DNA of 64,000 bases, taken from NCBI GenBank assembly GCA_041906785.1, contig JAYRIM010000028.1:121661-185660 (forward strand), written 5' to 3'. The notes beneath the pieces were generated by a model. That model was given only the letters and a program-made list of their open reading frames with translations, searched no databases and was not told the origin of the DNA. The first letter of the stretch is position 1. The number at the start of each line of letters is the position of its first letter. Both the position numbers and the translations under genes were made by a program. This document shows positions 4,212-51,554 of the stretch, piece by piece. Source of the DNA: Candidatus Levyibacteriota bacterium (GTDB taxonomy: Bacteria; Patescibacteriota; Microgenomatia; Levybacterales; UBA12049).

Positions 4212-5168
4212 TCATAAAGAAACTTTTTTATCTTCTGGAGGTTCCCCATGACAAACGCCTTCACCTTTGTCTGTAAAAGTTTGCCCGTTAATTGGTTTAA
4301 ACTCCCAGCTGTAACTTTTATCATACAATGTTAATACAAGGACACCGTATGAATTGTTCTCTTTTATCTCACTGTTTCTTGCAGGTCTTCCTAAATTATG
4401 AAGCATAGTTCCACCTGTACCAACGACAAATGATCGAATTCCATACTCGTTGTCTATTTGACCTATTGGATTTAATGGTGGAAAGCGTTCATACATGTGA
4501 TCGTGTCCGGCAAGACTAATATCGCTTCCTGCATTGTAAAGTACTTCCCAAAAAGGTAAAACTGCTTGATCATTACTCGATGGTCCTGAGCTGAATCGTG
4601 GATGATGTCTATAGGCAAGTGTGCAAAAGTTTCTATGTTTATCAAGGTCTTCTTTAAGCCATGTAATCTGTTCAGAATGTTCACAATCAGGATCTTCCAC
4701 ACAAAGCTGGCTATTCAATGCAATAATATGCCATTTACCTATATCATAACTATAAAACCCTTTCCCTTCTTCTCCTGCACGTTTACCAAAATACTTAAAG
4801 TAGGCTGATGCATTCTCGGTATGATATTCATGGTTACCCACAGCTGGTCTTATTCTAGATTTCAATTTTCCCCAGGCTGGATCAAAACAATTCATGAAAT
4901 CATCCCAAGATCCATCTGGGTATCCTATATCGCCTAAAAGCGCTATTGTCCCCGGCAATTGGCCAACGAGTTGAGCAACTTTTTCATCATATTCTGAATT
5001 ACAATCTCCAATATCCCCTACTGCTATCAAAAAATGTTTTGCTACCTTATTTTTTTCAGATTCTGAGGGGTTTGTGCCATCAGTAGTAAAAATTTTATCA
5101 CTATTGTTTCTAACAATAATAATCGATATTATTACTACTATACAGATGAGCGCCAAAAACTTTTTCAT
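4212..5168 (-). CDS. calcineurin-like metallophosphoesterase (purple acid phosphatase-like), secreted/anchored
   Basis: GDIGY...GNHEY...GHDHMYER metallophosphatase signature motifs; N-terminal TM/signal. Confidence 0.75.
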   Translation of the reverse strand: MKKFLALICIVVIISIIIVRNNSDKIFTTDGTNPSESEKNKVAKHFLIAVGDIGDCNSEYDEKVAQLVGQLPGTIALLGDIGYPDGSWDDFMNCFDPAWGKLKSRIRPAVGNHEYHTENASAYFKYFGKRAGEEGKGFYSYDIGKWHIIALNSQLCVEDPDCEHSEQITWLKEDLDKHRNFCTLAYRHHPRFSSGPSSNDQAVLPFWEVLYNAGSDISLAGHDHMYERFPPLNPIGQIDNEYGIRSFVVGTGGTMLHNLGRPARNSEIKENNSYGVLVLTLYDKSYSWEFKPINGQTFTDKGEGVCHGEPPEDKKVSL

Positions 5169-22189: not shown

Positions 22190-22729
22190 ATGAAAATTGG
22201 AATAGATATTTCACAAACTGCTTATGAAGGAACCGGAGTTGCAAATTTCCTTGAAAGATTGGTAGAAACTCTACTAAAAATTGATGAAACGAATGAATAC
22301 ATTTTATTTTATTCATCGCTTCGGAAAAAATTTCCAATTTCCAATTTCCAATTTCAAATTTCAAATAAAAACTTCACAATAAAACAGTTTAAATTACCTC
22401 CAAGCTTACTTGATATATTGTGGAATAAGTTGCATATTGTTCCCATTGAAACATTGATTGGAGATGTAGATGTATTTATATCTTCAGACTGGACTCAACC
22501 ACCTACAAGTAAAGCAAAGCAGGTGACAATTCTCTATGACTTAATTGTGTATACATATCCTGAAGAAACAGACAAAAAAATTGTTGAAGTGCAAAAAAGA
22601 AGACTACAGTGGGTAAAAAAAGAATGTGATCAGATACTATGCATTTCAGAATCCACAAAAAATGATGCAATGAGAATTCTAGGCATAGAAAAGGAGAGGT
22701 TACAGGTTATTTATCCTGGTGTACAATAA
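22190..22729 (+). CDS. GT4 glycosyltransferase, N-terminal (acceptor) domain only. Either a truncated tandem paralog or a pseudogene remnant. Contains a 35-nt heptamer repeat tract.
   Basis: MKIGIDISQTAYEGTGVANF ... ends at YPGVQ*, exactly where the GT4 C-terminal domain would begin. The next gene is a full-length paralog that has its own N-terminal domain. Confidence 0.55.
   Translation: MKIGIDISQTAYEGTGVANFLERLVETLLKIDETNEYILFYSSLRKKFPISNFQFQISNKNFTIKQFKLPPSLLDILWNKLHIVPIETLIGDVDVFISSDWTQPPTSKAKQVTILYDLIVYTYPEETDKKIVEVQKRRLQWVKKECDQILCISESTKNDAMRILGIEKERLQVIYPGVQ
22331..22365 (+). repeat. heptanucleotide tandem repeat tract (3x TTTCCAA + 2x TTTCAAA = 35 nt) inside the GT4 N-domain ORF
   Basis: Read directly from the sequence; encodes FPISNFQFQISN. 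The 7-nt unit is not a multiple of 3. Confidence 0.85.
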
Positions 22730-22733
22730 GAAT

Positions 22734-23885
22734 ATGATTATCGGAATTGATGGAAATGAAGCAAATGTTGCACATAAAGTTGGCATCAGCGAGTATGCTT
22801 TTGAACTGTTGTCACAGTTCAAAAATATCAAATATCAAATATCAAATATCAAATATCAAATTTATCTTAAAGATAAACCACGAATTGATTTACCAGCTGA
22901 ATCTGAATATTGGAAGTATCGGGTATTTGGACCGAAAAAACTATGGACGCAATGGAGATTACCGCTTGAGTTATTCGCTCATAGACCCCGACCAAATGTT
23001 TTTTTTACACCTTCTCATTATGCCCCGCGTTTCTCGCCAATTCCACGTGTGGTTTCGGTCATGGATCTTTCTTATATCCATTTTCCAGAAATGTTTAAAA
23101 AAGACGATTTATATCAACTTGTTAACTGGACAAAGTACTCAATCCAAAAATCAAAAGCTATCATTACAATCAGTGAATCAAGCCGAAATGATATAATTGA
23201 AGAGTATGGTGTTTCGAAAGAAAAAGTTCACGTTGTGTATCCAGGAATTAAAGAAATAGTAGATTTACAACCGCATATTTACGCTATGAGTGAATTACAT
23301 ACGAAATACAATATAAATAAAAATTACATTCTTTTTGTTGGAACACTCCAGCCTCGAAAGAATATTGCTCGCCTTATTGAAGCTTTTGCAAAAACGCTGA
23401 AAAATGCGGATCTAGACGCTGAAAAACGCGGAAATTTAGAATTGGTAGTGGTAGGAAGAAAGGGATGGTTATATGAAGAAATTTTAACTGCGCCTGAAAA
23501 ATATAGTATAAAAGAGCATGTTCGATTCCTCGATTATGTACCCGATGAAGATTTACCTTTACTGTATAAACAAGCTTTGTTTTATATACTTCCCAGTCTC
23601 TATGAAGGATTTGGCCTGCCTGTGCTTGAAGCGATGCAATATGAGTGTCCAGTAATAACAAGCAACATTTCGAGTCTTCCAGAGGCTGCAGGGGAGGCGG
23701 CGCTATATATTGACCCTCATAATGTTGATGATATAGCTGAGAAAATGGAAAAACTATTAAAGAGTCCTTCATTACGTAAAGAATTAATTGAGAAAGGGAA
23801 AAAGCAAGTAAAAAAATTTAGTTGGGAAAAAGCTGCAAAAGAAACACTTGCTATTTTAGGAGAAGTAGCTAAAAACAAAGTGTGA
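22734..23885 (+). CDS. GT4 glycosyltransferase (full length; contains a 35-nt heptamer repeat tract)
   Basis: MIIGIDGNEANVAHKVGISEY ... EGFGLPVLEAMQYECPVITSNISSLPE (the EX7E region). The internal ATG at 22734 is preferred over the GTG at 22719. Confidence 0.8.
   Translation: MIIGIDGNEANVAHKVGISEYAFELLSQFKNIKYQISNIKYQIYLKDKPRIDLPAESEYWKYRVFGPKKLWTQWRLPLELFAHRPRPNVFFTPSHYAPRFSPIPRVVSVMDLSYIHFPEMFKKDDLYQLVNWTKYSIQKSKAIITISESSRNDIIEEYGVSKEKVHVVYPGIKEIVDLQPHIYAMSELHTKYNINKNYILFVGTLQPRKNIARLIEAFAKTLKNADLDAEKRGNLELVVVGRKGWLYEEILTAPEKYSIKEHVRFLDYVPDEDLPLLYKQALFYILPSLYEGFGLPVLEAMQYECPVITSNISSLPEAAGEAALYIDPHNVDDIAEKMEKLLKSPSLRKELIEKGKKQVKKFSWEKAAKETLAILGEVAKNKV
22825..22859 (+). repeat. heptanucleotide tandem repeat tract (5x ATATCAA = 35 nt) inside the full-length GT4
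   Basis: Read directly; encodes NIKYQISNIKYQI; non-triplet unit. Confidence 0.85.
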
Positions 23886-23908: not shown

Positions 23909-23965
23909 GTTGTATTGTTGAATTGTTATATTGTTAGGAACAATAAAGCAATATAACAATAGCAA
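23909..23965. repeat. intergenic TTGTTATATTG inverted-repeat element, copy A
   Basis: GTTGTATTGTTGAATTGTTATATTGTTAGGAACAATAAAGCAATATAACAATAGCAA: direct TTGT(T)ATATTG units followed by their reverse complement CAATATAACAA. Confidence 0.6.
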
Positions 23966-30091: not shown

Positions 30092-31296
30092 ATATTTTAT
30101 TAATTTCTTCATATTTGCCTTATCCGCTTTATTCTGGTGGACATATCCGACTATTTAATTTAATTAAAGAACTATCGAAAAAGCACAGAATAACATTGGT
30201 TTGCGAGAAACGTGCGTACCAAACTGAAAAGGATATTATGGAAGTCGCCAGGTACTGTGACACTGTTCATACAGTTCACAGGAATAAGCAGTGGAGTCTA
30301 AAAAACATTATAAAAACAGGTTTCTCATTTAAGCCTTTTTTATTAGTCGGTCATGACCATAATGATATGAAGAAAAAGATTAAGGAGTTACTTGAGAAAA
30401 AAAAATTTGATGTCATACATGTTGAAACATTCTACGTACTGCAAAACGTTCCGGAGACTGAAATTCCGATAATACTTGTAGAACATAATATTGAATATTC
30501 AGTATATAAACGGTACGCAGATCAGGCAAAAATTTTTCTTCGTCCATTCTTTTATATTGATGTTAAAAAACTAGAAATCGCTGAAAAAAAATCATGGAAT
30601 AGAGTACATAAAGTAATCGCAGTTTCAGAAATTGAAAAGAAAAAAATAGGAATAGATGGCGTAGAAGTAGTGCCAAATGGTGTAGATCTAGGTCTTTTTA
30701 CTTTTAGAAAACCACTAGAAAAATCATATCATTCTGTTGCTAAACAAGCGCATATGCCAGAGAAAGAGTTGTTATTCATAGGTGATTTTTCTTGGATTCA
30801 AAATCGTGATGCAGTAAAATGGATTATTAATGATATTTGGCCATATTTGTTACGCGCAGTTGAAGGAGAAATTAAAATTAAGTTCCACATCGCAGGAAGA
30901 CAGATTCCTTCGGAAATTAGATCTTTAAGCACATATGACAGCATTATATATACAGAAAATTCACCAAATACTGTAGAACTTTTTAAGAATGCAGATGTAC
31001 TATTAGCGCCGATACGAGTAGGGGGTGGAACGAGCTATAAAATATTGGAAGCAATGGCTACAGGCGTCCCCGTAGTAACAACATCGTTAGGTATTGAAGG
31101 TTTACAGGCCAAACCTGATGTTCATGCTATATGTGCAGACGAAACACAAGCTCTGGTTGAAAAAACAGCTCGGCTTTTGAGAGATACAACTCTCTATGAG
31201 AATGTAGGAAAAAATGCACGGAAACTCATAGAAGAAAAATATAATTGGAAAGTAATTGCAAAGAAATTAGAAGAAGTGTATGAAGCTATAAAATAA
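30088..31296 (+). CDS. GT4 family glycosyltransferase
   Basis: C-terminal GGGTSYKILEAMATGVPVVTTSLGIEG donor-binding region. Confidence 0.8.
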   Translation: MNILLISSYLPYPLYSGGHIRLFNLIKELSKKHRITLVCEKRAYQTEKDIMEVARYCDTVHTVHRNKQWSLKNIIKTGFSFKPFLLVGHDHNDMKKKIKELLEKKKFDVIHVETFYVLQNVPETEIPIILVEHNIEYSVYKRYADQAKIFLRPFFYIDVKKLEIAEKKSWNRVHKVIAVSEIEKKKIGIDGVEVVPNGVDLGLFTFRKPLEKSYHSVAKQAHMPEKELLFIGDFSWIQNRDAVKWIINDIWPYLLRAVEGEIKIKFHIAGRQIPSEIRSLSTYDSIIYTENSPNTVELFKNADVLLAPIRVGGGTSYKILEAMATGVPVVTTSLGIEGLQAKPDVHAICADETQALVEKTARLLRDTTLYENVGKNARKLIEEKYNWKVIAKKLEEVYEAIK

Positions 31297-31360
31297 TTGT
31301 TATATTGCTAAATTGTTATATTGTTTTAGGATTAGAGCGATGTAACAATACAACAATCCT
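31294..31360. repeat. intergenic TTGTTATATTG inverted-repeat element, copy B
   Basis: AATTGTTATATTGCTAAATTGTTATATTGTTTTAGG...GTAACAATACAACAATCC between the GT4 stop and the GT2 start. Confidence 0.6.
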
Positions 31361-32266
31361 ATGTTTGATCTCTCGATAATTATCATTTCTTTTAATACAA
31401 AAGAATTTTTAAAAAAATGTTTACTTTCGATTAGAGAAAATACCTCGAAACCATTAAATTATGAAATTATCGTTGTTGATAATAACTCTTCAGATGGAAC
31501 AAAGGATGAGATTTCCAATTTTTCTTCTCAAATTTCCAATTTCAAATTGATTGAGAATGAAGAGAATGTTGGGTTCGCAAAAGCTTGCAATATTGGTGTA
31601 AAACAAGCAAAAGGCAGATATATATTATTTCTTAATCCTGACACGCATATTTTTAAACATACTTTAAATGAAATGGTTTCCTTTATGGATTTTCATAAAG
31701 AAGCTGGAGCCGCAACATGTTTTGTAGAATGGCCAAATCGAAAACTAGATGATGGTGCTCATAGAGGATTTCCAACTCCCTGGAATGCTTTTTGTTATTT
31801 TTCTGGTTTAGCGAAATTATTTCCGAAATCTTTATTGTTTAATGGGTATAATTTAGGGTTTAAGCATCTTGATACTGTGCATGAAATTGATGCACTAACT
31901 GGAGCTTTTATGATAGTAAGAAGAGAGGCTGGAGAAGAAATTGGATGGTGGGATGAAGATTATTTCTTTAATGGTGAAGATCTGGATTTTTGTTTTAAAT
32001 TAAAAGAAAAAGGTTGGAAAATATATTTTATTCCGACTGTAAAAGTCTTACATTATAAAGGAGTCTCGAGTGGCATTAAATCTATATCACGTGATATTAC
32101 TACTGCCGATAAAGCATTACGAATAAAAATAACAAAGGCGAGGTTTGATGCAATGCGATTATTCTACAAAAAGCATTATAAGAATACATATCCAGGAATT
32201 CTTACTTGGTTAGTAATGCTCGGGGTATCCTTAAAAGAAAAATTAGCGCTTCGAACAATATCCTAG
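31361..32266 (+). CDS. GT2 family glycosyltransferase (carries an in-frame insert of ATTTCCAATTT repeats)
   Basis: LSIIIISFNTKEFL ... IIVVDNNSSDGT ... FLNPDT ... FFNGEDLDFCFK. Confidence 0.8.
   Translation: MFDLSIIIISFNTKEFLKKCLLSIRENTSKPLNYEIIVVDNNSSDGTKDEISNFSSQISNFKLIENEENVGFAKACNIGVKQAKGRYILFLNPDTHIFKHTLNEMVSFMDFHKEAGAATCFVEWPNRKLDDGAHRGFPTPWNAFCYFSGLAKLFPKSLLFNGYNLGFKHLDTVHEIDALTGAFMIVRREAGEEIGWWDEDYFFNGEDLDFCFKLKEKGWKIYFIPTVKVLHYKGVSSGIKSISRDITTADKALRIKITKARFDAMRLFYKKHYKNTYPGILTWLVMLGVSLKEKLALRTIS
31510..31541 (+). repeat. two ATTTCCAATTT copies separated by 10 nt inside the GT2 gene. Shares the 18-mer AATTTCCAATTTCAAATT with the tract at 22331-22365.
   Basis: GAGATTTCCAATTTTTCTTCTCAAATTTCCAATTTCAAATTG encoding EISNFSSQISNFKL in the loop after the DGT motif. 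Confidence 0.7.
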
Positions 32267-32359: not shown

Positions 32360-33499
32360 ATGAAAATCGGGATTGATGTTCGACTCTGGAATGAGACTGG
32401 AGTAGGTCGGTATATTCGGAATTTGGTTAAAAACTTGCATGAGATTGATAAAGTTAATGACTATATTTTATTTGCAAGAGCAACTGATGTAGAAAGTATT
32501 AAGTATTATGTATCAAGTATTAAGTGGAAAATAGTTGTTGTAAATATTCGATGGCACTCTTTTAAAGAACAGTTGAAGTTTCCCCAAATTCTCTATAGAG
32601 AGAATCTAGATCTTATGCATTTTCCTTATTTCTCCGTTCCATTTAACTATAGAAAACCTTTTATTGTAACCATACATGATCTTATCATTTATCATTATTC
32701 GACAGGAAAAGCATCGACGCTTCCTTTACCTTTTTATCAGTTGAAACGTTTAGGATATAAATTTGCTATAAAGCAAGCTATTCATAACGCTAAAAAAGTA
32801 ATTGTCCCTCTGCAATCGGTTAAAGAGGACGTTATAGAAACCTTACAAGCTGATCCAAAAAAGATTATAGTAACTCAAGAAAGTGTTGATGAAGAAATTA
32901 ACAATGCTAATAGACAAATGATCAATCCACAATTAAAATCAGAGAATTATTTTCTTTATGTTGGTAATGCTTATCCACATAAAAATATTCAAACGTTACT
33001 GCAGGCGTTCGAATCATTTAAAAAACAAATTGTCCATCATAACGTTAAGCTATTTTTAGTTGGAAAAAAAGATTATTTTTATTCTCAGTTAGAAAACAAT
33101 TTAAAAGAAAAACAGGGAAATGCAGTACATATTTTTCATACCATTGATGATTCTATGTTACATGAATTGTATGATAATGCGATTGCTCTCATAGCACCAT
33201 CTTTTATAGAAGGTTTTGGTTTAGTACCCTTAGAGGCAATGGCGAACAATTGTCTGGTAATAGCGTCTGATATTCATGCGCATCGAGAAGTTTGTCAAGA
33301 CGCTGCGGTTTACTTTCCTGCTCATGATCAATCAGAATTAACAAATAGAATGATTGAAGTTTTTACACAGACTAATAATTCAATATTTGAAAATTTGAGA
33401 CAAAAAGGATTGAAAAGAGTAAAAAACTTTTCCTGGAAGCGTATGACTCAGGAAACATTGAAAATCTATGAAAGTTGCATTAGTGTACGACAGAGTTAA
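32360..33499 (+). CDS. GT4 family glycosyltransferase (carries an in-frame AGTATTAAGT repeat insert)
   Basis: MKIGIDVRLWNETGVGRYIRNL ... EGFGLVPLEAMANNCLVIASD. Confidence 0.8.
   Translation: MKIGIDVRLWNETGVGRYIRNLVKNLHEIDKVNDYILFARATDVESIKYYVSSIKWKIVVVNIRWHSFKEQLKFPQILYRENLDLMHFPYFSVPFNYRKPFIVTIHDLIIYHYSTGKASTLPLPFYQLKRLGYKFAIKQAIHNAKKVIVPLQSVKEDVIETLQADPKKIIVTQESVDEEINNANRQMINPQLKSENYFLYVGNAYPHKNIQTLLQAFESFKKQIVHHNVKLFLVGKKDYFYSQLENNLKEKQGNAVHIFHTIDDSMLHELYDNAIALIAPSFIEGFGLVPLEAMANNCLVIASDIHAHREVCQDAAVYFPAHDQSELTNRMIEVFTQTNNSIFENLRQKGLKRVKNFSWKRMTQETLKIYESCISVRQS
32494..32526 (+). repeat. AGTATTA(A/T) repeat insert inside the GT4, near-identical to intergenic 24583-24607
   Basis: AAGTATTAAGTATTATGTATCAAGTATTAAG (in-gene) versus AAAGTATTATGTATTAAGTATTT (intergenic upstream of the GT2 at 24606). 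Confidence 0.65.
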
Positions 33500-34553
33500 T
33501 AAATGGGGCGGGGCAGAAAGAGTACTTTTAGCCTTTCACGAATTATTTCCAGATGCTCCTCTATATACATCGGTTTATAATCCTGAGACTGCTCCATGGG
33601 CAAGTGCGTTTACAATAAAGACTTCGTTCCTACAAAATCTGTCATATTTTCGTAATAAACATGAACTGCTTCCTCTCCTTATGCCAATCGCTTTCGAAAG
33701 CTTTATTTTTGATGAATACGATCTTGTTATTTCTATAACAAGTGAATTTGCGAAAGCAATAATTACGAAACCTGGGACAAAGCATATTTGCTATTGTTTA
33801 ACACCTACCCGCTATTTATGGAGTGGATATGATGAATATTTTAAAAACAAAGTTTTACGGACTTCTACGAAATTCTTAATACGAAATCTACGAAAATGGG
33901 ATCGAATTGCAGCACAAAGACCAGATGCATATATCGCTATATCGAAAGAAGTACAGGGGAGAATTAAAAAATATTATGGAAGAGAATCAGAAGTTGTGTA
34001 TCCACCAGTAAGTTTACAAAATTCAAGATTTAAGATTCAAGATTTAAGAATAAATAAAAAAGAACAATATTTTTTAATTGTGTCACGGCTTGTAAGATAT
34101 AAAAGAATCGATCTTGCGATACGAGCATGCAATGAACTGCAATTTCCACTTAAAATTATTGGTATTGGAAGTGAGGAAAAAAGATTAAGGACAATTGCTG
34201 GTCCTACAATTGAATTTGTGGGCTCTGTAGATGAGGAAACACTTGCGCGATACTATTCTCAATGTCAAGCACTTCTTTTCCCTGGATACGAAGATTTTGG
34301 ATTAGCAATGGTTGAAGCACAGCTTTTCGGAAAGCCAGTGATCGCATTCCATAAAGGTGGTGCAGAGGAGATAGTTCTTCATGGAAAAACAGGTTTACTC
34401 TTCGATTCACAAACAGTTGCATCTTTGTCCTCTGTTTTAGGAGCATTTGAAAAAAATGACTTTGATAAGGAAGTTATTATGAAACACGCAGCTCAATTTA
34501 ATAAAGAACATTTTAAGAAAGCTTTCTTATCTGAATTAAAGAAATTATTATGA
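33468..34553 (+). CDS. GT4 family glycosyltransferase
   Basis: MKVALVYDRVNKWGGAERVL ... EDFGLAMVEAQLFGKPVIAFHKGGAEE. Confidence 0.8.
   Translation: MKVALVYDRVNKWGGAERVLLAFHELFPDAPLYTSVYNPETAPWASAFTIKTSFLQNLSYFRNKHELLPLLMPIAFESFIFDEYDLVISITSEFAKAIITKPGTKHICYCLTPTRYLWSGYDEYFKNKVLRTSTKFLIRNLRKWDRIAAQRPDAYIAISKEVQGRIKKYYGRESEVVYPPVSLQNSRFKIQDLRINKKEQYFLIVSRLVRYKRIDLAIRACNELQFPLKIIGIGSEEKRLRTIAGPTIEFVGSVDEETLARYYSQCQALLFPGYEDFGLAMVEAQLFGKPVIAFHKGGAEEIVLHGKTGLLFDSQTVASLSSVLGAFEKNDFDKEVIMKHAAQFNKEHFKKAFLSELKKLL
34021..34052 (+). repeat. 2x 14-nt direct repeat (ATTCAAGATTTAAG) inside GT4 33468..34553
   Basis: AAATTCAAGATTTAAGATTCAAGATTTAAGAATAAA encoding SRFKIQDLRINKK in the inter-domain linker. 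Confidence 0.6.
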
Positions 34554-36375: not shown

Positions 36376-36425
36376 TATGAGTTATGAGTTATGAGTTATG
36401 AGTTGTAGGTTGTAAGTTGTAGGTT
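36376..36425. repeat. heptamer tandem repeats (4x AGTTATG, then 3x RGTTGTA) with a GC-rich imperfect hairpin downstream (to ~36470)
   Basis: AAGTTATGAGTTATGAGTTATGAGTTATGAGTTGTAGGTTGTAAGTTGTAGGTTG followed by CCCGCCTGCAACG...GCGGGCAGG. Confidence 0.8.
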
Positions 36426-36504: not shown

Positions 36505-38517
36505 TTGAAATTGGTAGTATTTGACATTCTTATTATTGGTTGGGTATCATGTATTAGCTATATGGCTGGATTCAATAAAATAGATCTGAATACTGATGTA
36601 AAAGCTGGGAATCAGCCTAAAAATGATTCACTTTTTATGACTGTAAAAAAGAAACGTTCTTTACGATTTAAAAATAAAAAACTGGTTCTTGTAGCTGGCG
36701 GAATTATAGTTTTCTTCCTCCTATTGGCAGCTATAACAGCGGTGCCTGCATTTAATACTTATACAGCTGGAATGGCTACGTATCGTCAAGCGAAAATGAT
36801 CGCAACAGCTATGAAACAGCAGAACGTCACTTTGGCTTCAGAAGAATTAGAAAAAACAAAACAGAGTTTACAAACGACTAGGAAACATTTCGATCAAATG
36901 TTTTATCTTAAGTTTGTTCCTATTGTGAATTTCTATTATGGCGATGCCGATCATGCACTGAGAGCAGGTGAGTATGGTTTAAAAAGCGCTACCATCGTAA
37001 TCGATTCGCTGAAACCATATGCTGATGTTTTAGGTTTAAAAGGCCAGGGAAGTTTTAGTGCAGGTTCTGCTGAAGATCGAATTAAAACAGCTGTCATGAC
37101 AATGGGTAGAATTACTCCAAAGGTTGATGAGATTGCAGATTCCTTACTGCTCATTCAAAAGGAAATTGATCAAATAAATCCTGGACATTATCCAGAGTTA
37201 CTCTTCGGTAAAAAACCGAAAACAGAACTTACCCAGATTCGTGACCTAACGGATCAAAGTGTTGAATTGGTAAATGAAGCTCGTCCATTGATAAAAGTTC
37301 TTCCTTCATTACTTGGAGAATCAGAAGAAAAAAAATACTTGGTTCTTTTCCAAAATGATAAAGAACTACGTGCTACAGGTGGATTTATTACTGCATATAC
37401 AATTATGAAAATAGATAAGGGACGAATATCGATCGAACGGTCTGACGATATTTATCCTTTAGATGATTCAATTCCAAATAAACCAGAGGCTCCCGATCCA
37501 ATTGTTAACTATCTTCCAAAAGTTCCACGACTCAATTTACGTGATTCGAATCTCTCTCCAGATTTTGTTACATCCATGAAAACATTCAAGTCGCTTTATG
37601 ATAAGGCAGGACAGGGTGTAGATGTAGATGGAATTATCGCAATTGATACACATGTACTTGTTTCTACTATTAAAGTACTTGATGATCAAGTACAGGCAGC
37701 AGGAATGACATTTACGACACAAGTAGATAAACGATGTGATTGTCCCCAAGTTATTTATGAACTCGAAAATGATATCTCTCGCCCTGTAAATTATGTAAAG
37801 ACAGACCGTAAATACCTTATTCGAGAATTGATGAATACCATTATGGTGAAAGCATTGTCTTCTTCACCAAAGGCATACTGGGGGAAACTATTCCAAACAA
37901 TGCTTATGCTTACGAATCAGAAACACATCCTCTTTTATCTCTACGATAAAGACGCACAATCAGGTATAGAAGCTCTTGAAGCATCAGGAAAAATAGTTGA
38001 TTTTGAGGGCGATTATTTACATATTAACGACACAAATTTCGGGGGACAAAAGTCAAATCTTTTCACAAAGCATACTGTAGAAGTTGCTTATGATAAAAAG
38101 AATGATGGAAAAATAGAAAAAACCATAACTATTAATTATAAGAACACATTTCCACCTTCTAATTGTGATTTAGAAGCAGGGCAGCTCTGTCTAAACGCTC
38201 CATTACGTAACTGGCTTAGAGTTTACGTGCCGAAAGGAAGTAAGCTCGTCTCTAGTAAAGGTTCCCAAGTAAAACTACAAACATATGATGAATTAGGAAA
38301 AACTGTATTTGATGGATTCTTAACAGTAAGACCGTTAGGGTCTGCGAAATTTACGATCACCTATACCTTACCATTTAAAGTAGATTCAAACTCATTACCT
38401 ATTCTTATCCAAAAACAAGCGGGAACAGAAGGTCATGAGTATATAATTACTGCCAATGGTAGACCTGTCCAAAAATTCCAACTTTTTGCAGATAAAGAAA
38501 TGGAAATAAAGTTATAA
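36505..38517 (+). CDS. membrane-anchored extracytoplasmic protein (DUF4012-like), hypothetical envelope protein
   Basis: Single N-terminal TM then a ~600-aa hydrophilic domain. This family is commonly linked to cell-wall glycopolymer loci. The start codon is uncertain. Confidence 0.4.
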   Translation: MKLVVFDILIIGWVSCISYMAGFNKIDLNTDVKAGNQPKNDSLFMTVKKKRSLRFKNKKLVLVAGGIIVFFLLLAAITAVPAFNTYTAGMATYRQAKMIATAMKQQNVTLASEELEKTKQSLQTTRKHFDQMFYLKFVPIVNFYYGDADHALRAGEYGLKSATIVIDSLKPYADVLGLKGQGSFSAGSAEDRIKTAVMTMGRITPKVDEIADSLLLIQKEIDQINPGHYPELLFGKKPKTELTQIRDLTDQSVELVNEARPLIKVLPSLLGESEEKKYLVLFQNDKELRATGGFITAYTIMKIDKGRISIERSDDIYPLDDSIPNKPEAPDPIVNYLPKVPRLNLRDSNLSPDFVTSMKTFKSLYDKAGQGVDVDGIIAIDTHVLVSTIKVLDDQVQAAGMTFTTQVDKRCDCPQVIYELENDISRPVNYVKTDRKYLIRELMNTIMVKALSSSPKAYWGKLFQTMLMLTNQKHILFYLYDKDAQSGIEALEASGKIVDFEGDYLHINDTNFGGQKSNLFTKHTVEVAYDKKNDGKIEKTITINYKNTFPPSNCDLEAGQLCLNAPLRNWLRVYVPKGSKLVSSKGSQVKLQTYDELGKTVFDGFLTVRPLGSAKFTITYTLPFKVDSNSLPILIQKQAGTEGHEYIITANGRPVQKFQLFADKEMEIKL

Positions 38518-38518
38518 C

Positions 38519-38556
38519 TCACGAATCACACGAATTTCTTTACGAATGATGCGAAT
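38519..38556. repeat. array of ACGAAT/GCGAAT hexamers upstream of the GxxExxY gene; the inverted counterpart (ATTCGC x3, with the palindrome AATTCGCGAATT) lies at ~38925-38960
   Basis: CACGAATCACACGAATTTCTTTACGAATGATGCGAATTTG upstream; AATTCGCGAATTTCGCAAAAAGATTCGCATAA at the 3' end of the gene. Confidence 0.65.
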
Positions 38557-38964
38557 TTGTGTATGAGCCATGTCCTCTATAAAGAGCTCAGCTATGAAAT
38601 TGTTGGTGCATTATTTGAAGCCTATAATTCACTTGGTGCTAATTATCATGAAAGGTACTGCCAACGCGCTGTTGAGAAATTCTTAATTAAAAGGAATTTA
38701 AGGTATAAAAAAGAATATCCTGTTGATATTCTTCTTGAAGAAGATGTCATCGGTAAACACTATCTAGATTTTCTTATAAATGAAGTTGTTGTCTTAGAAA
38801 TTAAGAAAGGTAATAGATATAATATGTCAGATATAAAACAAGTTTTAATGTATTTAAAAACAACAGGGTTAAAACTTGGAATCTTGGCTTATTTTGGTAC
38901 TGATGGTGTATTCTATAAAAGAATAATCAATTCGCGAATTTCGCAAAAAGATTCGCATAATTAG
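38557..38964 (+). CDS. GxxExxY family protein (PD-(D/E)xK nuclease fold)
   Basis: IVGALFEAYNSLG (GxxExxY) ... VVLEIKKG ... TTGLKLGILAYFG are diagnostic of this family. Flanked by inverted CGAAT repeat arrays. Confidence 0.7.
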   Translation: MCMSHVLYKELSYEIVGALFEAYNSLGANYHERYCQRAVEKFLIKRNLRYKKEYPVDILLEEDVIGKHYLDFLINEVVVLEIKKGNRYNMSDIKQVLMYLKTTGLKLGILAYFGTDGVFYKRIINSRISQKDSHN

Positions 38965-39590
38965 TGAATATGAGAACATTTAAGACAGAAGGGATTGTTA
39001 TAAAGAGAAGGAATGTTGGCGAAGCAGATCGGATAATTACTATTTTTTCTAAAGATCATGGTAAATTACAAATAAAAGCTTCAGGTGTTAGAAAAATCAC
39101 AAGCCGCCGATCTCCTCATATCGAATTATTAAACTACGTTAATCTTACATTGTATACAGGTAAGACGTATCCTATATTAGTAGAAGCACAATCGAAAGAA
39201 AATTTTTCTACACTCAAAGAAGATTTACATAAAGTAGGACTCGCGTATCATATTTGTGAATTAATTGATGGTCTCTGCCCTGAAGGTCAGGAACACGAAT
39301 CAGTCTTTGAATTATTAAAAAGAACACTTGTCATCCTGAGTCCCGATGGATATCTGGGCGAAGGATCCCCAATGTACAATGATGCCGGAGATTCTTCGTC
39401 CTTCGACAAACTCACGACTCAGAATGACTTAGTTTTTATAATTCATGAATTTGAAGTAGAGCTTTTAGCATTGTTAGGTTATTGGAGAGGTTCACAAGAA
39501 GTAGCAAAAACGCTTGACACTCAACATATGATAGAGAATATTCTTGAAAGAAAATTAAAAAGCCGTAACATCTTCGCAAAACTTAGTTAA
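38964..39590 (+). CDS. recO: DNA repair protein RecO, carrying a 33-codon in-frame palindromic-element insertion
   Basis: MRTFKTEGIVIKRRNVGEADRIITIFSKDHGKLQIKASGVRK is the RecO N-terminal OB fold. Confidence 0.7.
   Translation: MNMRTFKTEGIVIKRRNVGEADRIITIFSKDHGKLQIKASGVRKITSRRSPHIELLNYVNLTLYTGKTYPILVEAQSKENFSTLKEDLHKVGLAYHICELIDGLCPEGQEHESVFELLKRTLVILSPDGYLGEGSPMYNDAGDSSSFDKLTTQNDLVFIIHEFEVELLALLGYWRGSQEVAKTLDTQHMIENILERKLKSRNIFAKLS
39330..39428. mobile_element. MITE-like palindromic element copy (99 nt, 33 codons), in frame inside recO
   Basis: Left arm GTCATCCTGAGTCCCGATGG; right arm ...GACTCAGAATGAC; GGATCC near the centre. Encodes VILSPDGYLGEGSPMYNDAGDSSSFDKLTTQND. Confidence 0.6.
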
Positions 39591-46898: not shown

Positions 46899-47411
46899 AT
46901 GAATAATCAAAAGTTATTTATTGGTTTTGGCATATTGTTAGTTGTACTCCTCCTTGGTGGTGGTTTATTTATTATGTCGTCCGGTAAAAAATCTAGCCAA
47001 TCTCCTACACCTTCTGCTGAGCAATTCATGATAGAAAAACTTTCTCCAGAAGATATTGGTCTAGAATTAATTCCAAAAACGCTTCCAAATGATGGAAAAC
47101 AGATAAAAGTTATAGTGAGTAAAGTTGCTGATATAAAACATTTAGCATATGAAATTACATACGAAGCAGATATTCCGAAAAGTGAATTGCCTCCAGGTGA
47201 GACAGAAGGACGTGTTGAGCGTGGTGTAGGAAATGATGATGTATCGATCAATTCATCTGATAAAAAATACGAATCGAAGTTTTTAGATTTCGGATCTGAG
47301 TCAAAAGGTGTGGTTCGATATGACACAGGAGTAACTGAAGCGAAGATCGTGATGAAAGTCACGAAACGGGACGGAAAAGTCTATCAGGTTGAAGATTCAG
47401 TGAAATTCTAA
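46899..47411 (+). CDS. secreted/membrane-anchored hypothetical protein
   Basis: N-terminal TM/signal (LFIGFGILLVVLLLGGGLFI); ATG at 46899 preferred over TTG at 46896. Confidence 0.4.
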   Translation: MNNQKLFIGFGILLVVLLLGGGLFIMSSGKKSSQSPTPSAEQFMIEKLSPEDIGLELIPKTLPNDGKQIKVIVSKVADIKHLAYEITYEADIPKSELPPGETEGRVERGVGNDDVSINSSDKKYESKFLDFGSESKGVVRYDTGVTEAKIVMKVTKRDGKVYQVEDSVKF

Positions 47412-47503
47412 TTGTTATATTGCTCTATTGTTATATTGTTAACTTCGCACAAGCGAAGTTTTTTATTTGTTTAGCAATAAAACAATACAACAATATAACA
47501 ATT
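47410..47503. repeat. intergenic TTGTTATATTG inverted-repeat element, copy C (longest, with a central stem-loop)
   Basis: AATTGTTATATTGCTCTATTGTTATATTGTTAACTTCGCACAAGCGAAGTT...AGCAATAAAACAATACAACAATATAACAATT. The central AACTTCGC-ACAA-GCGAAGTT hairpin is followed by TTTTTTATTTG. Confidence 0.6.
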
Positions 47504-47649: not shown

Positions 47650-48093
47650 ATGTTTCAGGGACAATACCGTGTTAAAATAGGAGAATTTTTTCGAGTTGCG
47701 TTTCCGAGAACATACAGAGATCGACTGGGTGAGAAGATTATTATCACGTACGGGTTTGAGAGTTCACTAATAATCACATCTGAGAGCCAGTGGGATGCGC
47801 TTTACAAAAAGGAAATTGAAGGTAAATCGTTCCTATTCCCAAATGTTCGGGATATAAGAAGATTTTTTCTCGGTGGAATAGCGACAATTGAATTTGATAA
47901 ACAAGGAAGATTTATTATTCCTGAATATTTACGCACATACGGAGAACTAGTAGATCAAAAAGAAGTGACATTCGTATGGCAGAAAGAATACGTGGAACTT
48001 TGGAATTCGAAGAGATGGGCTGAGAAAGAAAAAGAATTATTACGAAATATTAGCGTTATCGCAGAAAAATTATCGGAAACTGATAAGGTTTAA
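47650..48093 (+). CDS. mraZ: transcriptional regulator MraZ
   Basis: MFQGQYRVKIGEFFRVAFPRTYRDRL ... a duplicated MraZ-domain protein of 147 aa; first gene of the dcw cluster. Confidence 0.9.
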   Translation: MFQGQYRVKIGEFFRVAFPRTYRDRLGEKIIITYGFESSLIITSESQWDALYKKEIEGKSFLFPNVRDIRRFFLGGIATIEFDKQGRFIIPEYLRTYGELVDQKEVTFVWQKEYVELWNSKRWAEKEKELLRNISVIAEKLSETDKV

Positions 48094-48184
48094 TTTCCAG
48101 TTTCGAATTTCCAGTTGCCAATTAATTTGAAATTAATGAATTAATCAATTTACCGGAAATTGGAAAATCGAAATTCGAAACTAA
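48094..48184. repeat. ~90-bp imperfect palindrome filling the mraZ-rsmH spacer
   Basis: TTTCCAGTTTCGAATTTCCAGTTGCCAATTAATTTGAAATTAATGAATTAATCAATTTACCGGAAATTGGAAAATCGAAATTCGAAACT, centred on TTAATGAATTAA. Contains the TTTCCA(A/G) motif and its complement. Confidence 0.55.
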
Positions 48185-49057
48185 ATGGATACTTATCATA
48201 CACCTGTCCTTTTACAAGAAACAATTGAATTTTTAGATGTTCAGTCAGGAAAACGATACATTGATGCAACATTAGGTGGTGGTGGACATACTGAAGCTAT
48301 ACTGAAGCTTGGTGGTACTGTGTTGGGAATAGATACGGATGAAGAGGCTGTTACACACGTTCAAGAGAAACTAAAAATTAAAAACGAAAAAATAAAAATT
48401 ACTAAGGGGAATTTTAGGAATATTGACGAAATAGCAAGAGTGAATGGGTTTGAAAATGTAGATGGCATACTGTTTGACCTGGGTGTTTCAAGTCATCAAT
48501 TCGATAGCGCTGAACGGGGTTTTAGCTTTTTAAAAAAAGGACCATTAGATATGCGTATGGATCGAAGGCTTGGTGTAACTGCGAAAGATTTACTTGCGGT
48601 GCTATCTAAAACAGATCTGGCGAAATTATTTATAGAATACGGAGAAGAGCGATTCGCACATAAAATAGCTGATGCTATCGTAAAACGAAGAGAAATTAAG
48701 CCTATTGAAAGCACAGAAGAGTTAGAAGCATTAATTCGAATGGTAGTTCCTAAGAAGGAAGTCATCCATCCAGGAACACGGGTATTTCAGGCCTTACGAA
48801 TAGCAGTAAACACAGAACTTGAAAATATAGAAGAGGCATTGCCCAAAGCGATCGAATTAGTACACGTAAAAGGCAGAATTGCGGTTATCAGCTTTCATTC
48901 ATTGGAAGATAGAATTGTAAAACGTACATTTGCGGATTGGGAAGAAAATAACATTGGAAATATACTTACGAAGAAACCTGTGATACCAAGCGAAAAGGAG
49001 ATTGCAGAAAATCCTAGAAGCAGAAGCGCAAAATTAAGAGTTTTTGAAAAAATATGA
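48185..49057 (+). CDS. rsmH: 16S rRNA (cytosine1402-N4)-methyltransferase RsmH
   Basis: YIDATLGGGGHTEAIL ... FDLGVSSHQFD motifs. Confidence 0.9.
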   Translation: MDTYHTPVLLQETIEFLDVQSGKRYIDATLGGGGHTEAILKLGGTVLGIDTDEEAVTHVQEKLKIKNEKIKITKGNFRNIDEIARVNGFENVDGILFDLGVSSHQFDSAERGFSFLKKGPLDMRMDRRLGVTAKDLLAVLSKTDLAKLFIEYGEERFAHKIADAIVKRREIKPIESTEELEALIRMVVPKKEVIHPGTRVFQALRIAVNTELENIEEALPKAIELVHVKGRIAVISFHSLEDRIVKRTFADWEENNIGNILTKKPVIPSEKEIAENPRSRSAKLRVFEKI

Positions 49058-51115: not shown

Positions 51116-51117
51116 GT

Positions 51118-51184
51118 GTCATTCTGAGCGTAGCGAAGAATCCAAGAGGTCGTTTAAAAGATGTTTCGCTTCACTCAACATGAC
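51118..51184. mobile_element. short copy of the same palindromic element, immediately 5' of the GIY-YIG gene
   Basis: GTCATTCTGAGCGTAGCGAAGAATCC ... GATGTTTCGCTTCACTCAACATGAC. The GIY-YIG ATG (51180) lies in the right arm; the ftsI stop is 2 nt upstream of the left arm. Confidence 0.55.
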
Positions 51185-51467
51185 AAATATATATTGGGTT
51201 TATATTCTAACGAACTGGAACAATAAAGTACTCTATGTTGGTGTAACCAATAATTTAATTAAAAGAATATATGGACATAAAAATAAATTAGTTGAAGGAT
51301 TTAGCAGTAAATATAACCTTACTAAGTTAGTATATTTTGAAGAGTTCAATTATATAAATGATGCGATTGCAGCTGAGAAAAAAATTAAAGGATGGGTGAG
51401 GATTAAGAAGAATAAACTAATTGAATCAGTGAATCCAGAGTGGGAAGATTTGACTTTGTCATTCTGA
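51180..51467 (+). CDS. GIY-YIG nuclease-domain protein (stand-alone, 95 aa)
   Basis: IYWVYILTNWNNKVLYVGVTNNLIKRIYGHK matches the GIY-x10-YIG core. Its start and stop codons lie inside palindromic element arms. Confidence 0.8.
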   Translation: MTNIYWVYILTNWNNKVLYVGVTNNLIKRIYGHKNKLVEGFSSKYNLTKLVYFEEFNYINDAIAAEKKIKGWVRIKKNKLIESVNPEWEDLTLSF

Positions 51468-51554
51468 GTGAAACGAAGAATCTTTCGTAATTGATAAGAT
51501 CCTTGCGCCACCGCTAAAGCTTTAGCGACACGCGGTCACTTCGTTCAGGATGAC
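51458..51554. mobile_element. palindromic element copy immediately 3' of the GIY-YIG gene
   Basis: GTCATTCTGAGTGAAACGAAGAATCT ... GTCACTTCGTTCAGGATGAC with an internal perfect palindrome CGCTAAAGCTTTAGCG. The GIY-YIG stop TGA is the TCTGA of the left arm. Confidence 0.6.

Follow-up and report, generated by a model that had tools for sequence, protein, structure and literature searches.

In the window, by which we mean the whole stretch of 64,000 nucleotides analyzed here (contig JAYRIM010000028.1 of a Candidatus Levyibacteriota bacterium, positions 121,661 to 185,660), the spacer between a DUF4012 gene and recO contains one copy of a widespread, apparently undescribed cassette, in which a gene of the GxxExxY family, predicted to encode a small nuclease, lies at the center of a palindrome built from short repeat units. 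The cassette spans positions 38519-38967 (+ strand, 449 bp). Among its relatives in other genomes, the two inverted arms are coupled to each other, the repeat units are specific to the enclosed gene family, forms without an open reading frame (ORF) exist, and presence/absence in the spacers of same-strand operons occurs without target-site duplication. From these sequence patterns we suggest, with the chances about evenly balanced, that the repeat units may be cis-acting recognition sites for the cassette's own nuclease, and that the whole would be a semi-selfish element similar to the intervening sequences (IVSs) of 23S rRNA or to the REPIN/RAYT systems.

Structure of the cassette in the DUF4012-recO spacer

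The GxxExxY gene (38563..38964, + strand) encodes 133 amino acids and is bracketed by a 39-nt imperfect inverted repeat. Its 5' arm (38519..38557, +) carries the four heptamers CACGAAT (38520-38526), CACGAAT (38529-38535), TACGAAT (38541-38547) and TGCGAAT (38550-38556), and its 3' arm (38929..38967, +) carries the inverse array of ATTCGCG (38930-38936), TTTCGCA (38939-38945), ATTCGCA (38951-38957) and ATTAGTG (38960-38966). All in all, there are four YRCGAAT-type units or their inverse per arm, and their 9/12/9 spacing in the 5' arm is mirrored in the 3' arm. The arms are 72% complementary and form the longest inverted pair that a repeat search detected in this region. A first-pass annotation, made from the sequence alone, had described a fourfold CGAAT-type array upstream of the gene, which can be read in the sequence as stated, and three copies of ATTCGC downstream; the exact hexamer occurs there only twice, accompanied by two further degenerate units of the same inverted array. 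The 12-bp palindrome that it reported, AATTCGCGAATT, is located at 38929-38940 within the 3' arm.

The cassette occupies the entire spacer between its host genes. The 5' arm begins 1 nt past the stop codon of the DUF4012 gene (36505..38517, +), the left border of the insertion site, and wholly takes up the 45-nt gap before the GxxExxY start codon, whereas the 3' arm stops 2 nt short of the ATG of recO (38970..39590, +), the right border. The last 12 codons of the GxxExxY gene lie in the 3' arm and encode the tail INSRISQKDSHN followed by the stop codon TAG (38962-38964). The downstream array thus overlaps the end of the gene, as had been noted, but ends before the recO start instead of running into it. 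The most likely GxxExxY start is ATG 38563, and the database protein P0001 (133 aa) is 100% identical to the product, which corrects the earlier length of 135 aa. In the ORF list, the recO start is ambiguous, being either GTG 38964, which overlaps the GxxExxY stop, or ATG 38970; the latter is favored by the database protein P0121 (206 aa) and has no clear Shine-Dalgarno sequence, since the 3' arm occupies that position.

The pentamer CGAAT occurs in the window at chance frequency (62 observed vs. 67 expected), which the first-pass annotation had named, together with unflanked copies elsewhere, as grounds for rejecting the arrays. However, the cluster CGAATN{3,8}CGAATN{3,8}CGAAT is expected 0.01 times and matches in the window at this locus only, and a count of 2 matches, as observed, was reached in 0 of 100 shuffles. 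The window contains one GxxExxY copy. No Rfam family matched within 38300-39200 at E ≤ 1, and each window arm folded separately shows no structure beyond shuffles (z about -0.4). Two other roles of the arms were considered and rejected: promoter-like sites matching the consensus were no more numerous in the sequence than in its shuffles, and the search for terminators gave a single weak terminator-like match on the minus strand, inside the 12-bp palindrome.

Inverted arrays around GxxExxY homologs

The flanks of GxxExxY genes were compared in 80 loci of relatives with 40-74% identity, taken from species-representative genomes, nearly all of them Patescibacteria; for the most part, these loci are fragments of metagenome assemblies and include flanks of 1.5-4 kb. 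Most of the 80 loci possess four TAC-N-AAT units upstream of the gene (TACGAAT, TACAAAT, TACTAAT, TACGAAA and others) and the inverse ATT-N-GTA array downstream, in one fixed orientation. The question raised by the first-pass annotation, whether other GxxExxY copies carry such flanks, is hence answered positively, and the gene with its inverted arrays is a real, recurrent unit. At least three units of one type were found upstream in 49 of the 80 loci and at least three inverted units of one type downstream in 41, compared to one and two loci, respectively, for the opposite orientation. Where both arms qualify, the variant is identical in 27 of 31 loci (permutation mean 10.7, p ≤ 1e-4); it should be noted that related loci are phylogenetically non-independent, and permutation p-values such as this one therefore overstate the number of independent events. 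The coupling of arms was also observed in local alignments of each upstream flank with the reverse complement of a downstream flank, which reach a score of 22.3 when both flanks come from one locus, against 13.9 for flanks of different loci, 10.2 with shuffling and 12.4 for the direct orientation, and 21 of the 80 loci are their own best flank partner.

The modal arm of these cassettes has 4 units spaced 7-8 / 10-11 / 8 nt, and the window arm follows this 2+2 plan with slightly wider spacing. Within the unit consensus, T(0.65) A(0.75) C N(G 0.49, A 0.30, T 0.19) A A T(0.76), the T-A-C and A-A-T parts are conserved, while drift is seen at unit position 4 and in the spacers. In young copies, the arms measure 33-38 nt and are nearly perfect; L057 and L012 are examples of loci with such near-perfect arms. 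Homologous proteins end in C-terminal tails (NSR, DSR, NSRL and similar) that result from readthrough into the 3' arm. Close homologs occupy many different genomic contexts, and some genomes have several copies (L031, L076, plus four assemblies contributing two loci each). Cassettes are placed in same-strand operons, as seen for the upstream neighbor in 71 of 75 and for the downstream neighbor in 74 of 77 cases, with a median of 9 nt between the cassette end and the next start codon.

A gene on a replicon of Gemmatirosa kalamazoonensis (Gemmatimonadota), whose product is 31% identical, shares this layout but has a different, 11-mer unit, with four copies of GTCCTTCTTCA upstream and three copies of TGAAGAAGGAC downstream. 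It is one of only two distant GxxExxY matches in the plasmid collection, and the informative one, the flanks of the other match, from Persicobacter, being ambiguous. This Gemmatirosa cassette (L089, positions 150-830, NZ_CP007129.1) is GC-rich and contains, in addition to the 11-mer arrays, an inner inverted repeat ACACGTACGTGGAGC; a second cassette starts directly after the first. Another locus, L062, has a GC-rich hairpin GCCTGCCTGCCGGTAGGCAGG nested in a spacer of its 3' ATTAGTA array (~4385-4430).

A sister cassette with PF05635 genes

We further scanned the fetched loci for inverted array pairs of any sequence. As a result, three ORFs bracketed by inverted arrays other than TAC-N-AAT were identified, and all three belong to PF05635, the '23S rRNA intervening sequence protein' family. 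A metagenome scan with one PF05635 protein yielded 80 loci (L090-L169), whose genes are flanked by (N5)TAG 8-mer arrays upstream (GCGTCTAG, GGGTTTAG, GTGGATAG, GTTTTTAG and others) and by CTA(N5) arrays downstream. Similar to the GxxExxY cassettes, their arms are coupled, with alignment scores of 15.8 within the same locus, 9.1 between loci and 7.2 after shuffling, and 23 of 69 loci are their own best arm partner. The unit class follows the gene family: TAC-N-AAT arrays were found in 93 GxxExxY arms and no PF05635 arms, whereas (N5)TAG arrays were found in 90 PF05635 arms and in two arms of the GxxExxY set (Fisher p 1.6e-51 for the association of class and family). The PF05635 protein is a four-helix bundle without known catalytic activity. 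No rRNA was detected in 40 scanned cassette loci, and the cassettes therefore lie outside rRNA genes. The PF05635 arrays have an 8-nt period, in which the conserved TAG (CTA in the other arm) gives a stop codon in all three frames.

ORF-less palindromes and empty sites

Among the homologous loci, L051 possesses two ORF-less palindromes with directly abutting arms (...TTACGAAT|ATTCGTAA...), which are nearly identical to those around the GxxExxY gene at a distance of 0.5 kb; the copy with the gene has a Shine-Dalgarno sequence and the ORF exactly at its palindrome center. In the rpsK-rpsD spacer, L051 has a filled cassette, whereas an ORF-less TACGAAT palindrome is found there in L042. In L078, two ORF-less copies carry a different, nested palindrome in their loops. 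For each class, ORF-less arrays are enriched in the vicinity of the cognate gene (odds ratio 12, p 5e-5).

The site of the window cassette is itself polymorphic. It is filled in L081 and L082, where the order DUF4012-GxxExxY-recO is kept and the GxxExxY protein is 79% identical, and also in L083. Empty DUF4012-recO alleles, which the first-pass annotation had proposed to look for, were found in L084, L086 and L087, where DUF4012 is followed by recO across spacers of 98, 95 and 39 nt without GxxExxY; these empty spacers contain other small palindromes. By sequence identity, the empty L084 is no more distant from the window genome than the filled L081 is (76% vs. 71% for glycyl-tRNA synthetase and 75% vs. 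71% for DUF4012), so the cassette was either lost in L084 or gained twice.

The GxxExxY protein

The window protein matches TIGR04256 over model positions 1-116 of 116 (E 6.6e-20, 71.6 bits, cut-off 35) and PF13366 (PDDEXK_3; E 1.9e-21, 77 bits, cut-off 22). Residues E30, D69, E79, K81, Q93 and Y97 are invariant across 32 aligned homologs and all present in the window protein; together they correspond to the E / D / ExK / QxxxY set of RecB-type PD-(D/E)XK nucleases. No relatives with a solved structure were found in PDB at the sequence level. An AlphaFold 2 model is confident (predicted local distance difference test score, pLDDT, 92.3), and its best solved match by Foldseek is Cas4 SSO0001 (4ic1; E 1e-5, template modeling score 0.57). 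The other leading matches are the lambda and LHK exonucleases, MGME1 and the nuclease domain of AdnAB, while the catalytic domain of I-Bth0305I matches the structure weakly (rank 26, E 8e-3). Based on the motif and the model, the GxxExxY protein is predicted to be a minimal RecB/Cas4-like PD-(D/E)XK nuclease with intact catalytic residues.

The protein was not classed as Cas4. Its matches to Cas4 hidden Markov models are weak, the mature protein has a single Cys and not the four-cysteine Fe-S cluster of Cas4, and its neighbors are DUF4012 and recO, not cas1/cas2. Assignment to a defense-system family was likewise rejected, similarity to the Cas4/DRT nuclease being weak at most. PF13366 was the sole domain found, with no recognized transposase domain, and the protein has no match among the PHROG phage families. 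With 15,673 clusters at 50% identity (E ≤ 1e-3), GxxExxY/PF13366 is a large family, and PF13366 was listed as of unknown function in a survey that names it (PMC3424549). Many family representatives of ~265 aa hold two GxxExxY domains, which may be either tandem cassettes read through or true fusions.

Recognition sites or an RNA stem

Since the protein is the sole component co-inherited with the arms, the units would be the recognition sites of this protein, and their position-specific conservation implies a sequence-specific reader. Four-unit arrays with a gene-family-specific unit class point to such sites rather than to simple terminal repeats. The most likely route, although speculative, is that the nuclease would act on palindromes of its own unit class, and that the ORF module could be copied into, or lost from, these palindromes via recombination between the arms. 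Both the binding of the units by the nuclease and the mobility of the cassette are thus putative. Pairing of the arms could, in addition, enclose the ORF within the operon transcript in the manner of a 23S rRNA IVS.

The latter possibility is the core of an alternative explanation, by which the cassette would be an RNA-level device: the arms pair in the operon transcript, RNase III cuts the resulting stem, which frees or insulates the ORF mRNA, and selection keeps pairing and not sequence. Indeed, the 5' and 3' arms are paired with each other in both the minimum free energy and the centroid fold predicted for 38505-38985 (z -2.08), and a precedent is known in the Coxiella IVS, whose ORF belongs to PF05635 and which RNase III excises (PMC4990558). 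The same-strand operon placement with a short distance to the next start codon and the near-perfect arms of young copies are also consistent with this explanation. However, G·U does not exceed A·C among the sense-strand arm mismatches of either family (54 vs. 49 for GxxExxY, 21 vs. 38 for PF05635), a test of modest power with which an additional RNA role is compatible. Pairing alone leaves unexplained the four copies of one unit per arm, the conservation of T-A-C/A-A-T beside a drifting position 4 and drifting spacers, and the unit class that tracks the gene family. Moreover, the arm differences between the window and L081 (e.g., G to A at unit position 4) are uncompensated in the opposite arm, so that arm sequences are conserved while complementarity is not restored. 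The absence of a G·U excess, the four-copy family-specific units and the uncompensated yet conserved arms argue that pairing in the transcript is not what selection maintains. We infer that the units are read at the DNA level rather than kept as an RNA stem, and we consider an RNA-level device unlikely.

Selection on the window copy and possible domestication

Between the window and L081, fourfold-degenerate sites of the host genes are saturated (0.367 identical, n=515). Against this neutral level, the non-coding 5' arm has 29 of 39 identical positions (74%, p=1.9e-6) and the 3' arm 34 of 39 (87%, p=1e-10). For the GxxExxY ORF, the nonsynonymous and synonymous divergences are dN 0.13 and dS 1.39 (dN/dS about 0.09). 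The window copy is therefore neither a fresh insertion nor a decaying relic; it is old and maintained, and its ORF and both arms are under purifying selection. This copy is not a recent insertion of a selfish element of the kind suggested by the first-pass annotation, the same site being occupied in a relative at saturated divergence. A recent horizontal copy into the same site was considered and found unsupported, the fourfold identity of GxxExxY (0.48, n=31) being not clearly different from that of the host (0.37).

Such conservation might also be expected if the cassette were a domesticated host gene whose mobility has ended, with the units serving as operators or looping sites for the protein or for a host factor that regulate the gene and the operon. 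The conserved ORF and arms, the close fit of the arms to the spacer, where the 5' arm fills the gap ahead of the ATG and the recO start adjoins the 3' arm, and the lack of any activity of the window copy within the window agree with this scenario, which leaves unexplained, however, the ORF-less palindromes with identical arms in neighboring spacers, the varied genomic contexts of close homologs and the empty sites in the closest relatives. We regard domestication as quite improbable. The readings are not fully exclusive, as an old cassette may now serve the operon and its transcript may still fold.

Transposition, chance and points against recognition sites

The cassette might instead represent a classical minimal transposon, with the arms as terminal inverted repeats to which GxxExxY would bind as a cut-and-paste transposase. 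In being inverted and having multiple subterminal sites, the ends are similar to those of Mu and Tn7, the DUF4012-recO site shows presence/absence polymorphism, some genomes have several copies, and the ORF-less derivatives resemble MITEs (miniature transposable elements with inverted repeats). In 32 well-delimited elements, however, the lengths of abutting repeats equal those of the shuffled control, i.e., target-site duplication is at chance level. The Cas4/RecB-like fold has no known transposase relative by Foldseek, the sister cassette encodes a non-catalytic four-helix bundle protein, and the window copy, whose synteny is shared by a deeply diverged relative, is under purifying selection. 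The terminal-inverted-repeat selfish element implied by the first-pass annotation is thus not borne out, there being neither target-site duplication nor a transposase-type domain, and we hold a transposon to be very doubtful. Finally, an accidental cluster of an AT-rich pentamer, or low-complexity sequence of a generic intergenic kind, to which the expected overall frequency of CGAAT and the many other short arrays in the window might point, has a negligible probability given the shuffled pattern scan with its single cluster at this locus, the mirrored spacing in the opposite arm, the recurrence of the architecture at most of the 80 homologous loci in one fixed orientation, the arm-variant matching (27/31) and the class specificity (93:0 vs. 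2:90).

Several points weigh against the proposed recognition of the units by the cassette's own nuclease. The case for binding or cutting of the units by the protein is indirect, and the family-specific units could partly reflect the common descent of each cassette type. The PF05635 protein is without known catalytic activity, and the sister cassette would accordingly not be self-mobilizing in the same way. The window arms are only 72% complementary, and no ORF-less CGAAT palindrome was found in the 64-kb window, which gives no sign of activity in this genome. Presence/absence at the DUF4012-recO site could result from deletion instead of insertion. The empty L084 is also at least as close as the filled L081. 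The pairing of both arms in the predicted transcript folds, together with the limited power of the G·U comparison, counts in the same direction.

Comparison with known systems

The rRNA intervening-sequence ORFs have been without known function since the 1990s (PMC4990558). Of the two known groups of elements closest to the cassette, the first consists of the IVSs of 23S rRNA in Leptospira and Coxiella (PMC4990558); in Coxiella, the IVS is 428-444 nt long with a 28-bp terminal stem (PMC4990558). Both are ~430-450 nt in size and contain a small ORF of unknown role, both have terminal inverted repeats of 28-39 nt able to form a stem around the ORF, both are sporadic among relatives and co-transcribed with the host unit, and PF05635 genes outside rRNA share the array-palindrome design. 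Unlike IVSs, the cassettes are located between protein-coding genes (DUF4012 and recO in the window), with no rRNA in the 40 loci, their ORF encodes a PD-(D/E)XK nuclease and not a four-helix bundle, and their arms are four-unit arrays without the wobble signature of an RNA stem.

The second group is formed by the REPIN/RAYT (REPtron) systems (Ton-Hoang 2012). Similar to these systems (PMC3116915, PMC3337134), the cassette has inverted copies of a short repeat on both sides of a gene, no target-site duplication, a repeat class matched to the gene, mostly vertical inheritance and purifying selection on the gene. The dispersed ORF-less palindromic doublets of REPIN/RAYT have a counterpart in intergenic spacers of the relatives L042, L051 and L078, whereas none of this unit class was found in the window. 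In contrast, the cassette protein is Cas4/RecB-like (PF13366) and not an HUH/Y1 (IS200/IS605-like) transposase, which makes it an analog and not a member, and the arms are tandem arrays of 7-11-nt units, whereas those of REPIN/RAYT consist of one REP (repetitive extragenic palindromic) hairpin each. The cassette belongs to neither the 23S rRNA IVSs nor REPIN/RAYT, because it lies outside rRNA, its ORF is not PF05635 and its protein is not an HUH transposase.

Correia elements of Neisseria are MITEs that are processed as RNA, have TA duplications and contain no cognate internal ORF. Like the cassettes, they are short palindromes bounded by terminal inverted repeats, located inside operons and able to fold as RNA hairpins, and strong folds (z -5 and -8.4) were likewise computed for ORF-less palindromes in this analysis; unlike them, the cassettes have no duplication and include a cognate ORF-bearing form. 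Homing endonuclease genes, which are free-standing or located in introns and include PD-(D/E)XK types (I-Ssp6803I, I-Bth0305I), share with the cassette a small nuclease gene and filled and empty alleles of one site, but they have no inverted arrays of their own and a single conserved target, whereas the cassettes are found in many unrelated spacers. The Cas4, RecB and lambda-exonuclease domains share fold and motifs (E, D, ExK, QxxxY) with the cassette protein, which differs from them in having 133 aa only, no Fe-S cysteine cluster and no CRISPR context. No published description of array flanks was found in the literature searched for GxxExxY, or for PF05635 outside rRNA.

The general pattern exposed by these comparisons matters more than the single window copy. 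The occurrence of GxxExxY and PF05635 genes in similar palindromes, each with its own unit, provides a testable hypothesis that the protein reads its flanking arrays, and the array layout is a simple sequence signature for locating such cis elements. Readthrough into the arms explains odd annotated N- and C-terminal peptide tails, and many short arrays in Patescibacteria spacers are parts of structured palindromes. If the REPIN-like reading is true, the cassette would be a second, mechanistically different replicator of intragenomic palindromes. A broader and more tentative possibility, which we find less probable than not, is that unrelated small proteins (the GxxExxY nuclease, the PF05635 bundle and perhaps the small GIY-YIG proteins) each recognize their own array class and make up a large unrecognized group of palindromic cassettes across phyla, located in operon spacers and sometimes in rRNA; GxxExxY would then be the PD-(D/E)XK counterpart of REPIN/RAYT, generating and maintaining ORF-less array palindromes, and the 30-year-old IVS puzzle would become a special case of this group.

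Other palindromes and arrays

Elsewhere in the window, a GIY-YIG ORF of 95 aa (51180-51467; PF01541, E 6.7e-15) is enclosed by an inverted repeat of 31 nt (51157-51187 / 51455-51485, 84% complementary) that overlaps its start and stop. Its arms consist of the unique sequence TGTCATTCTGAG..CGAAGAATC and not of a short-unit array. The first-pass annotation had regarded this unit as having the same architecture as the GxxExxY cassette, which applies to the inverted repeat around an ORF and not to the hexamer array, the GIY-YIG repeat being a sequence of another family. A further direct copy at 51117-51142 makes an ORF-less palindrome with the GIY-YIG left arm (region 51117-51485). Palindromes of the GIY-YIG flank type, GTCATTGCGAG...CTCGCGATGAC, fill the empty DUF4012-recO spacer of L086 (3905-4000), and palindromes of the same GTCATTGCGAG...CTCGCGATGAC type are nested in the loops of TACAAAT-array palindromes in L078 (5500-5600, 6080-6180). 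It seems that other palindromic elements insert preferentially at palindrome centers.

Three ORF-less ATTGTTA / TAACAAT palindromes with nearly identical arms are located at 23914-23961, 31296-31360 and 47411-47502 of the window, each directly past a gene end, and no cognate ORF for them was found within the window. The last of the three contains a nested terminator-like hairpin AACTTCGC...GCGAAGTTTTTT and has a strong fold as single-stranded DNA (z -8.4). The 48.1-kb spacer has another array palindrome, TTTCGAATTTCCAG... / ...GGAAATTGGAAAATCGAAATTCGAAA, at 48093-48185, and upstream of the DUF4012 gene (36376-36421) there are four tandem copies of GAGTTAT and then three GGTTGTA-like units, followed by a GC-rich hairpin. 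Finally, tandem arrays of 7-8 nt (ATTTCCAA, ATATCAAA, AAGTATT, AAGATTT, TACGAAA) were found inside long, apparently glycosyltransferase-type ORFs at 22330-22362, 22819-22861, 31511-31543, 32494-32521, 34025-34044 and 33866-33895, where they look like in-frame insertions of spacer-type repeats.

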